Position numbers and translations under genes: made by a program. Source: a virus (taxonomy: Duplodnaviria > Caudoviricetes). Taken from it: a stretch of 64,000 nucleotides of DNA. The notes beneath the pieces were generated by a model that saw nothing but the letters and a program-made list of their open reading frames with translations, searched no databases and had not been told where the DNA came from. The stretch lies in IMG/VR virus record IMGVR_UViG_3300022752_000016; one strand, given 5' to 3'. Positions 2-61,846 of the stretch are shown here, in pieces (within the stretch, counting starts at the first letter, position 1; every line of letters begins with the position of its first letter).

Positions 2-997
2 CTAACCTTAGAGCTAAGACTAAACAAGTATGATAACAAGTTCATAAGTAATTTGGCAATGTTATTGTCTAAAAACAGATATGTAACAACTAATCAAAAC
101 AACCTTTTTAACAAACTACTAGTGAAATACAAAAGACAATTATCCAAACATAAAATTAACGTTGATGAAGTTCTACAATTAGAATGGAATACTAAAGTCA
201 TTGAAAGTTTACCTGAATTTACAGAGGCTCATCTTTCAATCGAGAATGATAAGCTCAAGTTAAGGTTACCCTTTAACAAAAAACTAATTGAAAACTTACG
301 ACAAGTAGAGCCTTATTTTAATATAACTTGGAACGTCACAAAGAAATGTTATTATTCTAATTTCTGTACTGATATACTTAAAATAATTATTAACATAATT
401 CCACATTATTATAAACTTAATCTTTCAGGTGAAATTAAACAATATTTACATGTATTAAATGATTACAATGATTGCAAATATTGGGACCCAACTTTAATTA
501 AGCAACCTTCAGGCTACTATATTGTGGCTGCCAATCAATATTTACTTAATGCTATTGAACATATAACCCTTAATAATGAACCACAAACATTGGTTGAACT
601 AAGCAAACATGCTATAATTATTGCTCCCGAGATAACAACTAATGATGATTTTTTAAAGTTTTGTGCAACATATGATGTTAAAATGGAACTTGACAAGTTA
701 CCATTATTACATGATTATTGTAGTATATTGAAAATTAAAAACATTATTTGTAATTACCGTATTGCAAGAATAAGAGAAGTAAGAAACGAAATCGAAAAAG
801 TGTTTGGTACAACCTATAACATTTACTATGAGAAATCAATCAACAATATTACAATGCCACATAATAAAAAAAGTTACCATGGTAAAACAATTGGTTTATA
901 TTATGGTAGTGCAAATGTAGCTATTGATTTAGTACGGTATTACCCAATTGAAAAAATAATAAACATAGTTAACAATAGACCTGTTAATATTAAATGA
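2..997 (+). CDS. Hypothetical protein upstream of helicase, 5'-truncated by the window edge; possible HARP-like motif
   Basis: The frame of the listed 53..997 ORF stays open back to nt 2, so the true start is probably upstream of the window. LRLPFNKKLIENL...WNVTKKCY resembles HARP-type motifs. The stop overlaps the helicase ATG (ATGA). Confidence 0.6.
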   Translation, partial: LTLELRLNKYDNKFISNLAMLLSKNRYVTTNQNNLFNKLLVKYKRQLSKHKINVDEVLQLEWNTKVIESLPEFTEAHLSIENDKLKLRLPFNKKLIENLRQVEPYFNITWNVTKKCYYSNFCTDILKIIINIIPHYYKLNLSGEIKQYLHVLNDYNDCKYWDPTLIKQPSGYYIVAANQYLLNAIEHITLNNEPQTLVELSKHAIIIAPEITTNDDFLKFCATYDVKMELDKLPLLHDYCSILKIKNIICNYRIARIREVRNEIEKVFGTTYNIYYEKSINNITMPHNKKSYHGKTIGLYYGSANVAIDLVRYYPIEKIINIVNNRPVNIK

Positions 998-2479: not shown

Positions 2480-2980
2480 ATGAGAATACTATTACTTGAT
2501 GACAACAGTTACAACCTAGAAACATTACCAGAAGAAATTGATGACTTACGATTTGCGATATTAGATAATAGCAACCCAAATAATGTTGATTATTACTTTA
2601 TTCCATTAGTATTTTTGGAATCGTTTAACAGTCCTGCATTAGTTCTACAGATTGGTGATCGTACTATAAAAATGCCCGTTGATTGGCAAATATTAATTGG
2701 AGAAAAAGATCATGGTGACTTAGAAACATTACCATTGTCAAGTTTAAATGATCGTGGATTCAGCGCATTTCAATTTAACCCAATAAGCAGTTTTAGCCCA
2801 GGTTTCTTGCCTGTAGAAATCATTGACATTTACAATGATGTTACTTGGTATGCACCTAGGCTACGTAATGGGCAATTTTTAAGCGTACCTATTGAAGATG
2901 GGCCTAAACCCCGATGTATATATTTTGTAAAAGAAATAAGCAGAAATTGTGAAATTGTAGATTATAGTCAAGTGTTTTAA
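2480..2980 (+). CDS. Conserved hypothetical protein, possibly a degenerate Hint-fold
   Basis: Clean 166-aa ORF. The hydrophobic pattern follows intein blocks A/B/F, but catalytic residues are absent (see findings). Confidence 0.6.
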   Translation: MRILLLDDNSYNLETLPEEIDDLRFAILDNSNPNNVDYYFIPLVFLESFNSPALVLQIGDRTIKMPVDWQILIGEKDHGDLETLPLSSLNDRGFSAFQFNPISSFSPGFLPVEIIDIYNDVTWYAPRLRNGQFLSVPIEDGPKPRCIYFVKEISRNCEIVDYSQVF

Positions 2981-3561
2981 TGAAAAAAACAATACCAACT
3001 GATGAAAAGTTAGAGAAACAAGACTTTGACTTGTTTGAAGCTGTTACTGCCATAGATAAAAAAGACTATGGTTATTACGATAGATTGAATGAAGAACAAA
3101 AGAAAAAGTTTGTGCCCTTTATGTTGTTACATTGGATCAGTGCGGTAAAAGGTAATAGAGATTTACAAGGGTATTATTTAATGAGTACCGAGCATCATGC
3201 AAACAAATATCTTTTTAATGAGAACATACAAAAGAACCCAAAATTACAATGGTTGATGCTATGTGCAAGTAGTCCAGGTATTGGAAAACAATTCCATCAA
3301 TATATTCCGCATATTAAAGATCGTGTTGCAAAACTACGTGATATAGCAAAACAAAAAGATATAGAGGAATATTTCAAAAAAATCTACAAAACAGATGATA
3401 ATACGTTAAAAGAAATGTCTGAGTTATATGTACAAAATCAAAAACGTAAGGTTTATTTGGCTAACAAATTTCCTCATCTAAAAATAGATGATATTGATTT
3501 ATTAAATGAACTAATTACAGACAATGAAATAGAGCAGTATGAGCGAGACAGTGGAAATTAA
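2980..3561 (+). CDS. Putative clamp-loader small subunit (T4 gp62-like)
   Basis: KKFVPFMLLHWIS...ANKYLF...KLQWLML resembles the gp62 pattern (xSPFMxNRxLS...MN...QYxxL). It lies in the replication operon, and a gp44-like partner is at 59023. Confidence 0.45.
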   Translation: MKKTIPTDEKLEKQDFDLFEAVTAIDKKDYGYYDRLNEEQKKKFVPFMLLHWISAVKGNRDLQGYYLMSTEHHANKYLFNENIQKNPKLQWLMLCASSPGIGKQFHQYIPHIKDRVAKLRDIAKQKDIEEYFKKIYKTDDNTLKEMSELYVQNQKRKVYLANKFPHLKIDDIDLLNELITDNEIEQYERDSGN

Positions 3562-4231
3562 ATTCGGGTGTGAATTTTGTAATCGTACTTTTTTACGTGA
3601 AAGTACGATTGCCAAACATATCTGTGAATATAAACATCGTTGGCAAGAAAAAGATAAACGAGGTAACCAAATTGGTTTTCAGGGTTGGCTACATTTTTAC
3701 AAAAGAAATACTGCTACAACAAAACAAAGAACCTATTTAGACTTTATTAAAAGCAGTTATTATATTGCATTCGCTAAGTTTGGTAACTATTGCGTTGACG
3801 TAAACGTAATTAATGTACAACGGTATATAGATTGGCTACTAAAAAATAAAATACGTATTGATGTTTGGAACCACGATACCAATTACAGTAAATTTTTAAT
3901 TGAATATTTGCGTAATGAAGATCCATTAGATGCAATACATCGTAGTGTAGAATCTACTATTCTACTAGCAAGTGAAGAAAGGGTATTGCCTAAGGATATA
4001 TTAAGATATGGTAATAAAAATAAAATATGTTATCATGTTACTACAGGAAAGATTAGTCCATGGATGTTATACCAATGTGACAGCGGACTAAAGTTTATAG
4101 ATAGTTTAGATGAATCACAAGTAAAAATGATTATTAACTATATTGATCCTGAAAAATGGGCTATAAAATTTAAAAGAAATTCTGATATTGTAACATCAGT
4201 AAAGGAAATTTTAAATGCAGGGCAGTACTAA
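3539..4231 (+). CDS. Zinc-finger protein, function unknown
   Basis: N-terminal CEFC-x12-H-I-C finger; overlaps both neighbouring genes. Confidence 0.7.
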   Translation: MSETVEIKFGCEFCNRTFLRESTIAKHICEYKHRWQEKDKRGNQIGFQGWLHFYKRNTATTKQRTYLDFIKSSYYIAFAKFGNYCVDVNVINVQRYIDWLLKNKIRIDVWNHDTNYSKFLIEYLRNEDPLDAIHRSVESTILLASEERVLPKDILRYGNKNKICYHVTTGKISPWMLYQCDSGLKFIDSLDESQVKMIINYIDPEKWAIKFKRNSDIVTSVKEILNAGQY

Positions 4232-5178: not shown

Positions 5179-5396
5179 TGGTTGATACTTCTTTTAAAAC
5201 AAGAAAAGGCACAGGATATACCTACGATTGCAAAGGTAGAAAAGAAAATCCAACACATATTGTTAAATGGTGTAGAAATAATTTCGGTGAGCGTGGTAAA
5301 GGTTGGGACTTTTACACGGTACAAGGGAATGTCCATATTGAAATTTGGGATAGCAAATATAAAATGATGTATGAACTTTGGAAATATAATGTATAA
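5178..5396 (+). CDS. Small paralogue 5
   Basis: KWCRNNFGE...WDF...IEIWDSKYKMMYELW. Confidence 0.65.
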   Translation: MVDTSFKTRKGTGYTYDCKGRKENPTHIVKWCRNNFGERGKGWDFYTVQGNVHIEIWDSKYKMMYELWKYNV

Positions 5397-5952
5397 TCAT
5401 GTAATGATTGATATGGAAACGTTAAGCACAGATCCAAACTGTGTAATATTAACAATAGGTGCTGTAAAATTTAATCCAAGGAGTACAGGTGTAATTAAAA
5501 AATTAGAATTAAGACCTACTGTTGATGAACAAATTGAAATTCATAATAGGACAATTAACGATGATACTTTACGCTGGTGGTCTGAGCAAAGCCCTGAAGC
5601 ACTTGAAGAAGCATTGGGAGACAGGGGAAGGCAATCATTTAAAGAGTGCATGGATATACTTTACAAGTTTTGTTGGAACTGTGATGCTGTTTGGAGCAAT
5701 GGTGCATCATTTGATATTGTTGTTGCTGAAACCGCATTTAGGCAAACTCTCATTGATCGCCCTAATCCTATTCCTTGGCCTTTTTATGCTATTAGAGATA
5801 CTAGGACTTTATACGAAATTGCGGGAGTCAAACTTAAAGATGGAGGTTACGTTACCACACACAAAGCAGTAGAAGATGCAGAACGTCAAGCAATTGTTGT
5901 ACAACAAGCGTATACTAAGTTAATTAAAGCAGGATTGTATGCGAATAAGTAG
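5389..5952 (+). CDS. DEDDh 3'-5' exonuclease (Rv2179c/DnaQ-like)
   Basis: Exo I MIDMET, Exo II WSNGASFD, RDTRT and Exo III H-KAVED. The ATG at 5389 overlaps the upstream stop and is preferred over 5371. Confidence 0.85.
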   Translation: MYNHVMIDMETLSTDPNCVILTIGAVKFNPRSTGVIKKLELRPTVDEQIEIHNRTINDDTLRWWSEQSPEALEEALGDRGRQSFKECMDILYKFCWNCDAVWSNGASFDIVVAETAFRQTLIDRPNPIPWPFYAIRDTRTLYEIAGVKLKDGGYVTTHKAVEDAERQAIVVQQAYTKLIKAGLYANK

Positions 5953-6523
5953 TGATATTGATATTGATTTGGCAGATCGTGAGTCACTATTAAAATTAAT
6001 AGAACATATTCCTGCATCAATAAGAAAAAACAATACAGTAAAAAAACATCCAACTGGTGTTTATGTAACAGATATACCATATGATCCAATTAACAACATG
6101 TCAGCATTGGATTATGAAATAGCAGAAAATAGAGGATATTTTAAACTTGATTTTTTAAATGTACATGTATATGGAAAAATTAAAGATGAGCAACATTTAA
6201 TAAACTTAATGTGCGAACCTAATTGGACAAATTTGTATAAAAAAGATTTTGTTGAAAAATTAATACATATTAATAATCAATTTGACATATTATTAAAAAT
6301 GCCAGAGCCTATCGATAGTATACCTAAATTAGCTATGTTTTTGGCAATTATTCGACCTGGTAAACGACATTTAATTGGTAAAACATTTGATGTAATTGAA
6401 AAAAGTGTTTGGGATAAAGTAGATGATAGTTATTATTTCAAAAAAAGTCATAGTTACAGTTATGCACAATTAGTTGTTGTGCATATGAATTTGCTTGATG
6501 AATCAAATAACTTTTTTAACTAG
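5939..6523 (+). CDS. dnaE: DNA polymerase III alpha (C-family) catalytic fragment, minimal C-terminal half
   Basis: DIDID, KHPTGVYV, GYFKLDFL, LAIIRPG and YYFKKSHSYSYA match DnaE DFDVD, KHAGGVVI, GLVKFDFL, VALFRPG and YGFNKSHSAAYA in order. Confidence 0.85.
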   Translation: MRISSDIDIDLADRESLLKLIEHIPASIRKNNTVKKHPTGVYVTDIPYDPINNMSALDYEIAENRGYFKLDFLNVHVYGKIKDEQHLINLMCEPNWTNLYKKDFVEKLIHINNQFDILLKMPEPIDSIPKLAMFLAIIRPGKRHLIGKTFDVIEKSVWDKVDDSYYFKKSHSYSYAQLVVVHMNLLDESNNFFN

Positions 6524-6883
6524 TGTTATACTACGCCTTTTTAATCTACGCTTATTTAAATCTTGTAAAGAACAAACAGGACCATGTAAAATAGTAAGAC
6601 TTTTTGTATTAAATGTGCGTAAAAATATTTTAAATGATGTCCATTCATCCTTTAAAAAAAGATTAATTGGTATTAATCTATTACTTTCCCACCACCAAAC
6701 CTCACCTAGCATTAAAAATCTGCTTTTTTCATCTCTATCAATTATTGCACCATAATCATACAATGTAGTCACAATGTCATCACTATTTTGGATTATTCCA
6801 ACATATTCTTGATTTGCATAGGATACAACAGACATAAAAGGGTGTGTATCACTTAATTTTTTTAAAAAATCATTATTAATCAT
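6503..6883 (-). CDS. Conserved hypothetical protein with basic C-terminus
   Basis: Clean 126-aa ORF with WWWESNRLIPINLFL and a KRRLKRR tail; converges on and overlaps the end of the dnaE fragment. Confidence 0.7.
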   Translation of the reverse strand: MINNDFLKKLSDTHPFMSVVSYANQEYVGIIQNSDDIVTTLYDYGAIIDRDEKSRFLMLGEVWWWESNRLIPINLFLKDEWTSFKIFLRTFNTKSLTILHGPVCSLQDLNKRRLKRRSITLVKKVI

Positions 6884-56406: not shown

Positions 56407-56916
56407 ATGAAGGTAGATAAATATGGTCAAGTTATACTAAATGAAGAGGACTTGTGTGAAGTATTATATACAAATCCAAACCATACTTTTGTAAAAGTTT
56501 TTACAGAAACTTTAATAAAAATTCCTAATTTCGTACATACTGGTAGTTTTATACCTTCTATAAATAACGATAATACAATAGAAGAATTTGATTATAAATT
56601 ACAAAAAAATTATTATATACCAGAAAAATATAAAAATTTTGATATTAAAAACCATATCAAAAATTTATGTAACAACAATTTAGAATTACATAGGGTAGAA
56701 TTAGAATTAAAGTTGTTTGAAAAATATGATATGATTAATTTGTTAATTTATTTAAAATACTTAGTAGATATTACAAAACTTCACAATATTGTTTTGGGTG
56801 TAGGCAGAGGCAGTAGTGTTGCTAGTTTTGTATTATACTTGCTAGGAATTCATAAAATAAATTCATTAAAATATAATTTATCAATAAATGAATTTTTTAA
56901 AGGAGAAAATTTATGA
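56407..56916 (+). CDS. dnaE: DNA polymerase III alpha (C-family) N-terminal palm fragment
   Basis: RVELELKLF...LIYLKYLVD...GVGRGSSVASFVLYLLGIHKINSLKYNLSINEFF matches DnaE RLETELQVI...[34 protein letters not shown]. Confidence 0.85.
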   Translation: MKVDKYGQVILNEEDLCEVLYTNPNHTFVKVFTETLIKIPNFVHTGSFIPSINNDNTIEEFDYKLQKNYYIPEKYKNFDIKNHIKNLCNNNLELHRVELELKLFEKYDMINLLIYLKYLVDITKLHNIVLGVGRGSSVASFVLYLLGIHKINSLKYNLSINEFFKGENL

Positions 56917-57296
56917 AGGTTAAAACTGCACAAGGAAAAACTTTGGATATGGGTGCACTAATCGCTAAAAATGAAAAAGCCAGAGCCGTAGGAAACATGA
57001 AGGTTAATGCAAGAGGAGATACAATTGATTCACATAATAATATTATCAAATCTGTAAATGAAAAAACAGCTAGTGGATATGCAAAAACAGTTGGAAATAA
57101 ATCAGGCCAAATTGTTCGTCAAACTCCTTTAAGTAATAATCAAAGTACTATGCACACCATTAATCAACTGCCTGTAAAACCAATTAATGATGAAGAACAA
57201 AATTTATTACAAGATTTACAAGAATTTATAGAGGATGATAAAGACCTTAAAAAAGAAACAAATGAAAAGGAAAAAAATGATAGTAAGGAAATTTAA
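56913..57296 (+). CDS. Hypothetical protein
   Basis: SD AGGAG; conserved-looking N-terminus RAVGNMKVNARGD. Confidence 0.65.
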   Translation: MKVKTAQGKTLDMGALIAKNEKARAVGNMKVNARGDTIDSHNNIIKSVNEKTASGYAKTVGNKSGQIVRQTPLSNNQSTMHTINQLPVKPINDEEQNLLQDLQEFIEDDKDLKKETNEKEKNDSKEI

Positions 57297-57624
57297 AAAA
57301 ATCCTACCACTTTATGATTCAGTAATTGTAAGTGATATGATGTTTGAAGAAAGAGTCAGTCAAGGAGGTATAATAATTCCAAATGATGATATGAAAGATT
57401 CTGGAATAAGACCAAGATGGGCAAAAGTCTATGCTATAGGTCCTGATCAAAAAGACATAAAGGTCGGGCAATATATTTTAATAAGTCATGGTCGTTGGAC
57501 TAGAGGTATTAAAATTGATGATGGTGATAGTATAAAAACTATCCGTAAAGTGGATAACAATGATATATTAATGGTGAGTGATGAACCTGTACATGATCAA
57601 ACAATGAGTGACAAGGTAGTTTAA
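57277..57624 (+). CDS. groES: Co-chaperonin GroES
   Basis: ILPLYDSVIV, mobile loop SQGGIIIP, VYAIGP...IKVGQ, C-terminal NDIL; ATG at 57277. Confidence 0.85.
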   Translation: MIVRKFKKILPLYDSVIVSDMMFEERVSQGGIIIPNDDMKDSGIRPRWAKVYAIGPDQKDIKVGQYILISHGRWTRGIKIDDGDSIKTIRKVDNNDILMVSDEPVHDQTMSDKVV

Positions 57625-58333: not shown

Positions 58334-59026
58334 ATGTTTACAATGAGTGAATCTTTTAACCCTGTTTATAGAACTGCTGAAGAAATAAACACAGCTATGG
58401 CAGGCGTTTATAAATGGATGTTTTTAGCAATTAGTGTAAGTATGGGTATTGCGTTTGGAGTTGGTAGTAATCCTGATTTACTAAATTTCTTTTTTACAGG
58501 TCTATTAAAATGGGTCGTAATTTTTGCCCCATTAGTTGCAGTATTCGCAATTTCAATGGCATTAAATGCTAATCCTCCTAAGGAACTAGCAGTGCTAATG
58601 TTAATAGGGTTTTCAGCATTAATGGGATTAAGCTTTTCTACAATTTTTGCAATTTATAAATTGGGAAGTATTTTTACTGCATTCATGGGTGCAGGTATTT
58701 TATTTGGAGTAATGAGTTTTTATGGATATTTTACAAAAAAGAGCTTGGATAGTGTCGGAAAGTTTATGTTTGTTGGCCTTATCGCTATTATTCTTGCCAG
58801 TATTGTCAACATTTTCATCGGTAGTAGTTTATTCAGCATGGTTATTAGCAGTATTGCTATCATTGTATTTTTGGGATTGACTGCATATGATACACAAAAA
58901 ATCCGTGAAATGATTAGTTATGAAACATCTGGAAACATGGAAGTTCAAGGAGCATTGACATTATACATGAATTTCATTAATATATTTCTATCTTTACTAC
59001 AATTATTCGGTGAAAAGAAAGAATGA
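58334..59026 (+). CDS. Bax inhibitor-1 / YccA (TMBIM) family membrane protein
   Basis: About seven hydrophobic helices; GLTAYDTQKI and GALTLYMNFINIFLSLL signatures. Confidence 0.9.
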   Translation: MFTMSESFNPVYRTAEEINTAMAGVYKWMFLAISVSMGIAFGVGSNPDLLNFFFTGLLKWVVIFAPLVAVFAISMALNANPPKELAVLMLIGFSALMGLSFSTIFAIYKLGSIFTAFMGAGILFGVMSFYGYFTKKSLDSVGKFMFVGLIAIILASIVNIFIGSSLFSMVISSIAIIVFLGLTAYDTQKIREMISYETSGNMEVQGALTLYMNFINIFLSLLQLFGEKKE

Positions 59027-61052: not shown

Positions 61053-61065
61053 GCCCCGTTTTTTT
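61039..61065. terminator. Bidirectional terminator at a convergent junction
   Basis: AAAACGGGGC-TTAA-GCCCCGTTTT (a perfect 24-bp palindrome) plus a T-run. Confidence 0.85.
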
Positions 61066-61846
61066 AACCATATAATTTTAAAATATGTTCAATAATACGG
61101 TGTCTACGAATATCTTCTACTTTAAATTCACAAGTTATAAGACCATCGACTTTACACAATTTAAGTTTGTTTTTTAAATCTAATAAACCATTTTCCGTAT
61201 TTTTTCTATCAGTTTGTTCAATATCTCCTGTAATAATTATTTTACTATTTTTTCCTATACGTGTCATAAGCATTTTTAGTTGACTTGGTGTAGCATTTTG
61301 GGCTTCATCTAAAATAATCCAGCTATAGTTGAAATTCCTACCACGGCAAAATGCCAATGGCGTAATTTCAATTATTTGTTCATCTAACATATGTTTTATA
61401 TCTTTAGCCGAATAATATTCACGTAAAATATCAATCAAAGGTCTTACCCATGGTTCCATTTTTTGATTTAAATCGCCTGGTAAAAATCCATGTTTTTCGT
61501 CATCAACAGTTACAGCTGGTCTAGTTAAAATTATTTTTTCACATTCTTTTTCTCTCAATGCTTTTATAGCAGTTAACATAGCTAAATAAGTTTTTCCTGT
61601 ACCAGCAGGTCCCGAAACAACAACGATATCTGTGGTTGGATCATTCAAGAAGTCCAAATAAATTTTTTGATTTTCGCTTTGAGCTTTTATAACAACAGAT
61701 TTCCTATTTTTAAAAGCGTAATTTGCTTGGTTAAAATCTATTGTTTTTGATTGATTCATATAAAATGTGTTTGATTCATCTAGACTGGTAATGTAGTTTT
61801 GTTTGCTATCTTGTTTTCTTAGGGCTCCAGTTTTTCTTTTAGCCAA
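61064..61846 (-). CDS. phoH: PhoH-family ATPase
   Basis: GPAGTGKT, LTRP, GFLPGDL, RGRNF, DEAQN, GDIEQ; TTG start with SD AGGAG. Confidence 0.95.
   Translation of the reverse strand: MAKRKTGALRKQDSKQNYITSLDESNTFYMNQSKTIDFNQANYAFKNRKSVVIKAQSENQKIYLDFLNDPTTDIVVVSGPAGTGKTYLAMLTAIKALREKECEKIILTRPAVTVDDEKHGFLPGDLNQKMEPWVRPLIDILREYYSAKDIKHMLDEQIIEITPLAFCRGRNFNYSWIILDEAQNATPSQLKMLMTRIGKNSKIIITGDIEQTDRKNTENGLLDLKNKLKLCKVDGLITCEFKVEDIRRHRIIEHILKLYG

Follow-up and report, generated by a model that had tools for sequence, protein, structure and literature searches.

A predicted split minimal DNA polymerase III alpha in an uncultured AT-rich phage, and its rare single-chain relatives

Introduction

A phage-specific, minimal form of the DNA polymerase III alpha subunit (Pol III alpha) that is split into two proteins was described from group 2.2 (Rak2-like) jumbo phages by Iyer, Anantharaman, Krishnan, Burroughs and Aravind (Iyer et al. 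2021; Viruses 13:63; PMC7824862). In that description, one protein represents the N-terminal part and binds NTP, the other represents the C-terminal part and binds Mg and template, their genes are distant from one another, the minimal Pol III alpha accompanies a family B polymerase, and its suggested role is one-strand synthesis or repair (PMC7824862). When the literature was searched for experiments on the split minimal Pol III alpha, only this 2021 paper was returned.

The window analyzed here is a stretch of 64,000 nucleotides from an uncultured virus (IMG/VR record IMGVR_UViG_3300022752_000016). A sequence-only reading of the window had left it open whether the split family C polymerase encoded within it had been described before. 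As the split form was published in 2021 (PMC7824862), any implied novelty fails; the split minimal Pol III alpha has been known since then as a sequence-based prediction, and the present finding repeats it. Added by the present analysis are rare single-chain forms, a controlled co-fold, and a clade-limited link to an exonuclease. The homology of the two genes to family C polymerases, the complementarity of the halves they encode, their conservation, their co-occurrence and their predicted interface are established below. It is probable that the gene referred to here as the C-half (Table 1) encodes the C-terminal subunit of a split minimal Pol III alpha, which, together with the product of a distant gene, the N-half, would form an active templated accessory polymerase.

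Table 1. Features of the window and of single-chain relatives. Nucleotide positions are those of the window unless a locus is named; motifs are numbered by residue and paired with their counterparts in E. coli DnaE.
Feature	Position	Strand	Description
Rv2179c-like DEDDh 3'-5' exonuclease	5371..5952	+	PF16473, E 3.9e-32; candidate partner only
C-half of split minimal Pol III alpha	5939..6523	+	194 aa, begins MRISSDIDID; all three catalytic Asp (D6, D8, D71) lie in its palm strands; KH 36-37
C-half reduced fingers core			RPG 139-141, FKKSH 167-171
Motif DIDID	C-half 6-10		DnaE PDFDVD 400-405
Motif KKHPTG	C-half 35-40		DnaE GKHAGG 509-514
Motif KLDFLN	C-half 69-74		DnaE KFDFLG 553-558
Motif IRPGK	C-half 138-142		DnaE FRPGP 638-642
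Motif FKKSH	C-half 167-171		DnaE FNKSH 756-760
Conserved 126-aa ORF, function unassigned	6503..6883	-	phrog_11637, E 1.2e-31
N-half of split minimal Pol III alpha	56407..56916	+	169 aa, NTP-binding part of palm
Fused minimal Pol III alpha P0286, P0392, P0393	L016:1066-2193; L023:519-1649		375-376 aa, three separate assemblies

Catalytic motifs of the C-half

The sequence-only reading had listed a series of DnaE motifs in the C-half, and all five were mapped in order to E. coli DnaE, for which the NC_000913.3 copy was used as the reference (Table 1). From this equivalence, the three aspartates of the C-half correspond to the catalytic D401, D403 and D555 of the E. coli enzyme. The spacing of the motifs is strongly reduced. 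Only 29 residues lie between D8 and H37 as compared to 108 between D403 and H511, and thus 79 residues are gone from the C-half; by its size and place, the missing segment is the thumb, in good agreement with the loss of about 80 thumb residues noted earlier. Likewise, R139 and K169 are separated by 30 residues as compared to 119 in E. coli DnaE, leaving ~89 residues absent between RPG and FKKSH, and the protein ends 23 residues past FKKSH. In 26 homologues (62-85% identity), D6, D8, D10, K36, H37, G40 and D71 are invariant, as are R139, P140, K142, F167, K168 and H171. The resemblance to DnaE is beyond chance.

The C-half belongs to phrog_11778, 'DNA polymerase' (E 1.3e-55), and both halves are labelled DNA polymerase in PHROGs and RefSeq. 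A Pfam search of the C-half alone yielded nothing but a chance match to PRP38, and a C-half profile reached no polymerase chains when searched against PDB sequences. Using hhalign, residues 34-78 of the C-half were placed weakly on DnaE 508-562 (E 9e-4, probability 23%); in these comparisons, which set narrow profiles against the single sequence of E. coli DnaE, the matches of both halves are local and weak, but correctly placed.

Some C-half homologues (P0003, P0005, P0011, P0031 and P0109 in alignment A1) carry a short extra C-terminal tail with endings such as (L/F)(D/N)S(S/T)(F/L)(I/V), loosely like the clamp-binding tails of T4-type polymerases. This tail is absent from the window's own C-half.

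The complementary N-half gene

The segment that precedes the DxD in DnaE, carrying the GRGS motif, had been assigned to a separate gene ~50 kb away, and this assignment is borne out by a match of the N-half to Pfam PF07733 (positions 23-95 of 260, E 2.4e-12). The two half-genes are always far from one another, the distance being 50.5 kb in the window and 34-182 kb in cultured phages. The N-half contains GVGRGSS at residues 131-137 (GRGS 133-136), which is invariant in the homologue alignment, belongs to phrog_11127 (E 1.3e-35) and, when its profile was searched against PDB sequences, matched the Pol III alpha chains of Taq and E. coli. On DnaE, the end of the N-half and the start of the C-half meet at residues 396-397, with 4 + 5 residues at the split point in the window proteins, where E. 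coli DnaE has 8 and the fused form described below has ~10.

Preceding the region that resembles family C polymerases, residues 1-65 of the N-half (56407-56601) make up a conserved extension with invariant M1, D4, G7, Q8 and E13. No match to this extension was found among family C polymerase structures. In the predicted complex it packs against the C-half, and it might act as a stand-in for a missing domain.

Pfam searches of both halves gave no match beyond PF07733 in the N-half, with the PHP, OB and clamp-binding domains all absent, and a search of both halves for intein or Hint families at E<=1 gave no match either, in keeping with the earlier description of the split as intein-free. The sequence-only reading had also held that most of the fingers were lost along with the PHP, clamp-binding, HhH and OB domains. 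While the absence of these four domains stands, the fingers are reduced as opposed to nearly gone, as ~124 residues superpose on E. coli alpha 557-781.

Fold and predicted association of the halves

AlphaFold models of both halves were compared with known structures using VIA-align, as the sequence-only reading had suggested, and only C-family polymerases scored well above unrelated chains, with Z values that are moderate only. For residues 66-192 of the C-half, the top seven chains were all seven of the family C representatives (Z 8.3-5.8), led by M. tuberculosis DnaE1 (Z 8.3, rmsd 3.2, 124 residues aligned) and including PolC (Z 7.8), E. coli alpha 557-781 (Z 7.6) and Taq alpha (Z 7.6), as compared to a Z of 3.8 for the best unrelated chain. 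The model of N-half residues 66-169 likewise placed the same seven representatives on top (Z 7.0-4.1; next chain 3.5) and superposes on E. coli alpha 277-397. A Foldseek search of either isolated half against the PDB returned nothing at E<=0.001.

When the C-half was folded alone, residues 1-72, which contain the palm strands, were predicted to be disordered (pLDDT <50), whereas the pLDDT of the C-half rose to 90 in a co-fold with the N-half. Three co-folds of the pair scored 0.90, 0.90 and 0.91 as compared to 0.00 for the best of three controls, with a contact agreement of at least 94% between runs, a partner pLDDT of at least 89, and 172-178 contacts, among them contacts of the C-half DxD strand with an N-half strand and the GRGS loop. 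The mark applied to such co-folds was passed by 58 of 80 solved complexes and by two of 110 mismatched pairs, a calibration that is only rough because the analysts' own alignments were used, and the score itself may partly reflect memory of intact DnaE structures. Read in this way, the models support the binding of the N-half and C-half as a heterodimer.

Rare single-chain relatives

A profile search with the C-half across 1.84 billion representatives yielded 473 clusters at 50% identity, nearly all of which are 190-200 residues long. One further member, P0286, is a protein of 375 residues that resembles the N-half over residues 14-180 (36% identity, E 1e-21) and the C-half over residues 190-370 (41% identity, E 5e-42). 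Other assemblies yielded two further fused proteins, P0392, which is 81% identical to P0286, and P0393, which is 78% identical to it. The alignment of P0286 with E. coli alpha 319-417 (E 3.5e-6) runs without a break through the GRGS motif, the split point and the DxD, and P0286 also aligns with positions 12-121 of PF07733 (E 4.8e-16). These bridging proteins are the strongest link between the C-half and family C.

The fused form is rare, with three clusters as compared to thousands of split ones, and its genes, all from metagenomes, occupy a C-half-type locus and are followed by the small convergent ORF that also accompanies the split C-half. In a FastTree phylogeny of 104 C-halves, the fused clade is nested within a well-supported clade of standalone proteins, which suggests a secondary fusion under midpoint rooting; the tree has no outgroup, and a root on the fused branch is possible. 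Among the closest split relatives of the fused clade, no N-half was found within ~5 kb upstream of the C-half.

In its place, these relatives carry an ORF directly upstream of the C-half (L112:3993-4991 and L113:4089-4991) that starts like a GIY-YIG endonuclease and continues as many tandem repeats of ~14 residues (NKTK..LL.NWI). This ORF is possibly a mobile endonuclease beside the split gene.

Taken with the way in which the halves abut on DnaE, their co-fold and their co-occurrence in relatives, these natural fusions uphold the proposal of a two-subunit enzyme of ~360 residues with a Pol-beta fold.

Distribution and gene neighborhoods

Searches by tblastn returned 95 phage records for the C-half and 102 for the N-half, with almost identical organism lists. 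These phages make up the Rak2-like group, including 121Q, GAP32, CBB, PA5oct, Atu_ph07, SCTP-2, RsoM2USA and Phosso. The window's copy is at most 47% identical to cultured members, with identities to Atu_ph07 of 46.7% for the C-half and 37% for the N-half. In metagenomes, each half is represented by ~8000 clusters at 90% identity, nearly all members of which are ~190 residues (C-half) or ~168 residues (N-half) long. The survey of relatives called for by the sequence-only reading also showed the halves to co-occur with one another and with a second polymerase. Seven of nine large IMG/VR relatives encode the N-half, at 43-53 kb from the C-half, and the two without it are estimated to be 54-58% complete; each of the nine has at most one PF07733 match, which is the N-half. 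All four cultured relatives examined contain a single PF07733 match and a family B polymerase, and the latter is also present in both complete IMG/VR relatives. Of the window's ORFs that were scanned, none was recognized as a PolB-sized gene.

Synteny of both loci is shared by the phage studied here and by phages of Pseudomonas, Agrobacterium and enterobacteria. The C-half locus comprises a UvsW-like helicase, small ORFs, the C-half, a convergent ORF of ~120 residues, a virion protein, a primase and DnaB, and the N-half locus comprises the N-half, a small ORF, GroES, a gp44-type clamp loader and PhoH. This conservation bears on the possibility that the two ORFs have no function and are merely what is left of a phage DnaE gene that was formerly whole. 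A distance of 50 kb between the pieces and the loss of most DnaE domains would fit such decay, but both ORFs are intact, their catalytic residues are invariant across hundreds of divergent clusters, their surroundings are syntenic from phage to phage, and identical copies are present in several independent metagenomes, making decay barely credible.

The conserved 126-aa ORF (Table 1) is a convergent gene that shares 21 nt with the 3' end of the C-half. It adjoins the C-half in the same position and orientation in PA5oct, Atu_ph07, GAP32 and Phosso and lies no more than ~1.3 kb from the C-half in two metagenome relatives. Pfam and Atlas searches with this ORF gave no functional lead.

Between the helicase and the C-half are three further ORFs on the plus strand (2480-2980, 2980-3561 and 3539-4231; phrog_11279, 11758 and 11058). 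PA5oct and GAP32 contain matches to all three, and Atu_ph07 and Phosso to two each. These ORFs belong to the same conserved replication module. Around the N-half, minus-strand genes of the window at 57235-57624, 58334-59026 and 61064-61846 encode GroES (Cpn10), a Bax1-I family membrane protein and PhoH, and a region just past the window (L014:10526-13578) encodes DnaJ and a ClpB-like AAA+ chaperone.

A clade-limited exonuclease neighbor

The sequence-only reading had pointed to an overlapping DEDDh exonuclease as a potential proofreader acting in trans. The overlap is real, as the last 14 nt of the exonuclease gene cover the start of the C-half, and adjacency extends to the clade, the exonuclease lying 0-1.3 kb upstream of the C-half in eight of nine large IMG/VR relatives and three more metagenome contigs. 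The link does not extend to PA5oct, Atu_ph07, GAP32 or Phosso, however, where the exonuclease is absent from the C-half locus. A PF16473 search gave no match in PA5oct or Atu_ph07, and the copies in GAP32 and Phosso are all distant from the C-half. The closest phage homologues of the window's exonuclease come from unrelated small phages. The coupling is therefore a trait of this environmental clade as opposed to the system. Within this clade, the two halves and the translationally coupled exonuclease could constitute a three-protein minimal proofreading family C polymerase, a stripped-down analogue of alpha-epsilon that would extend or process DnaG-made RNA primers before hand-off to a T4-type family B replicase; we regard this elaboration as doubtful.

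The same neighborhood could be read to mean that the C-half acts alone or with a partner other than the N-half, such as the exonuclease, which is translationally coupled to it here and adjacent to it in the clade, or the convergent 126-aa ORF, which neighbors it in every relative examined. While all three aspartates reside in the C-half, the GRGS triphosphate-binding loop is found only in the N-half, and the palm part of the C-half is not predicted to fold by itself. Furthermore, the natural fusions join the C-half to the N-half and to no other protein, and PF16473 finds no exonuclease in PA5oct and Atu_ph07. A different partner, or none, is accordingly very improbable.

Discussion

In the mechanism proposed here for the split minimal Pol III alpha, the C-half would contribute a reduced fingers module and the three aspartates that bind metal, and the N-half would complete the Pol-beta-like palm with its GRGS part, which binds the nucleotide triphosphate. 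The halves would associate non-covalently, without an intein, and rebuild a single catalytic domain of ~360 residues. The resulting heterodimer is expected to be an active templated nucleotidyltransferase, which may work at the fork alongside the T4-type family B replicase as an accessory polymerase of the distributive, short-patch kind, with extension of DnaG-type RNA primers, gap filling and DNA repair as possible jobs. Judged from gene context alone, such accessory, distributive synthesis at the fork is the likeliest role.

The Pol-beta fold superfamily has many non-templated transferases, and the heterodimer could be another one, such as a terminal transferase, a maker of nucleotide signals or primers, or a modifier of DNA ends that reuses the Pol III palm. 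Consistent with this idea, the thumb that grips the primer-template duplex is gone, along with the residues lost between RPG and FKKSH, the superfamily offers precedent, and the relatives already own a family B replicase. On the other hand, the fingers core that has been kept superposes on the fingers of DnaE and PolC, the invariance of RPG and FKKSH is hard to explain without a DnaE-type site for the template or the incoming dNTP, and both genes lie in replication modules. Non-templated transfer thus appears improbable, and templated synthesis by the heterodimer remains the preferred reading.

If active, the pair would be smaller than any other known family C polymerase core, with two proteins dividing one active site, and would reveal which parts are the minimum for Pol III-type catalysis. 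An active pair would further show how a bacterial-type polymerase operates alongside an archaeo-eukaryotic-type family B replicase in one replisome. As the halves form thousands of clusters in environmental jumbo phages, one biochemical test would annotate a large gene set.

Relation to described polymerases

The window proteins share with DnaE and PolC a Pol-beta-like palm with a GS loop, the DxD and a third aspartate, as well as fingers with RPG and F(N/K)KSH. They differ in comprising 363 residues in two chains as compared to ~1160 in the one chain of DnaE, and in having no PHP domain, thumb, distal fingers, clamp-binding motif, HhH, OB or tau-binding part.

Cyanobacterial DnaE is encoded by two genes that carry split-intein pieces, and its parts are joined covalently by trans-splicing into a full-size enzyme. 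The system described here is similar in that a family C polymerase arises from two distant genes, but its halves lie flush on DnaE with no extra junction residues, and the break divides the palm itself, separating the GRGS loop from the DxD. The single-chain proteins P0286, P0392 and P0393 have the same N-part and C-part, the same reduced architecture and the same small convergent ORF after them, and differ from the split form in that a linker of ~10 residues replaces the split and makes them one polypeptide.

The closest system is the split Pol III alpha of the group 2.2 phages, to which the halves of Atu_ph07, PA5oct, GAP32, 121Q and others belong and with which the window halves are orthologous. 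Both have two standalone halves encoded by distant genes in a T4-like jumbo context, and other Pol III domains were found in neither. There is no difference in kind between them; the phage with the present copy is uncultured and AT-rich, and an Rv2179c-like exonuclease precedes the C-half in its clade.
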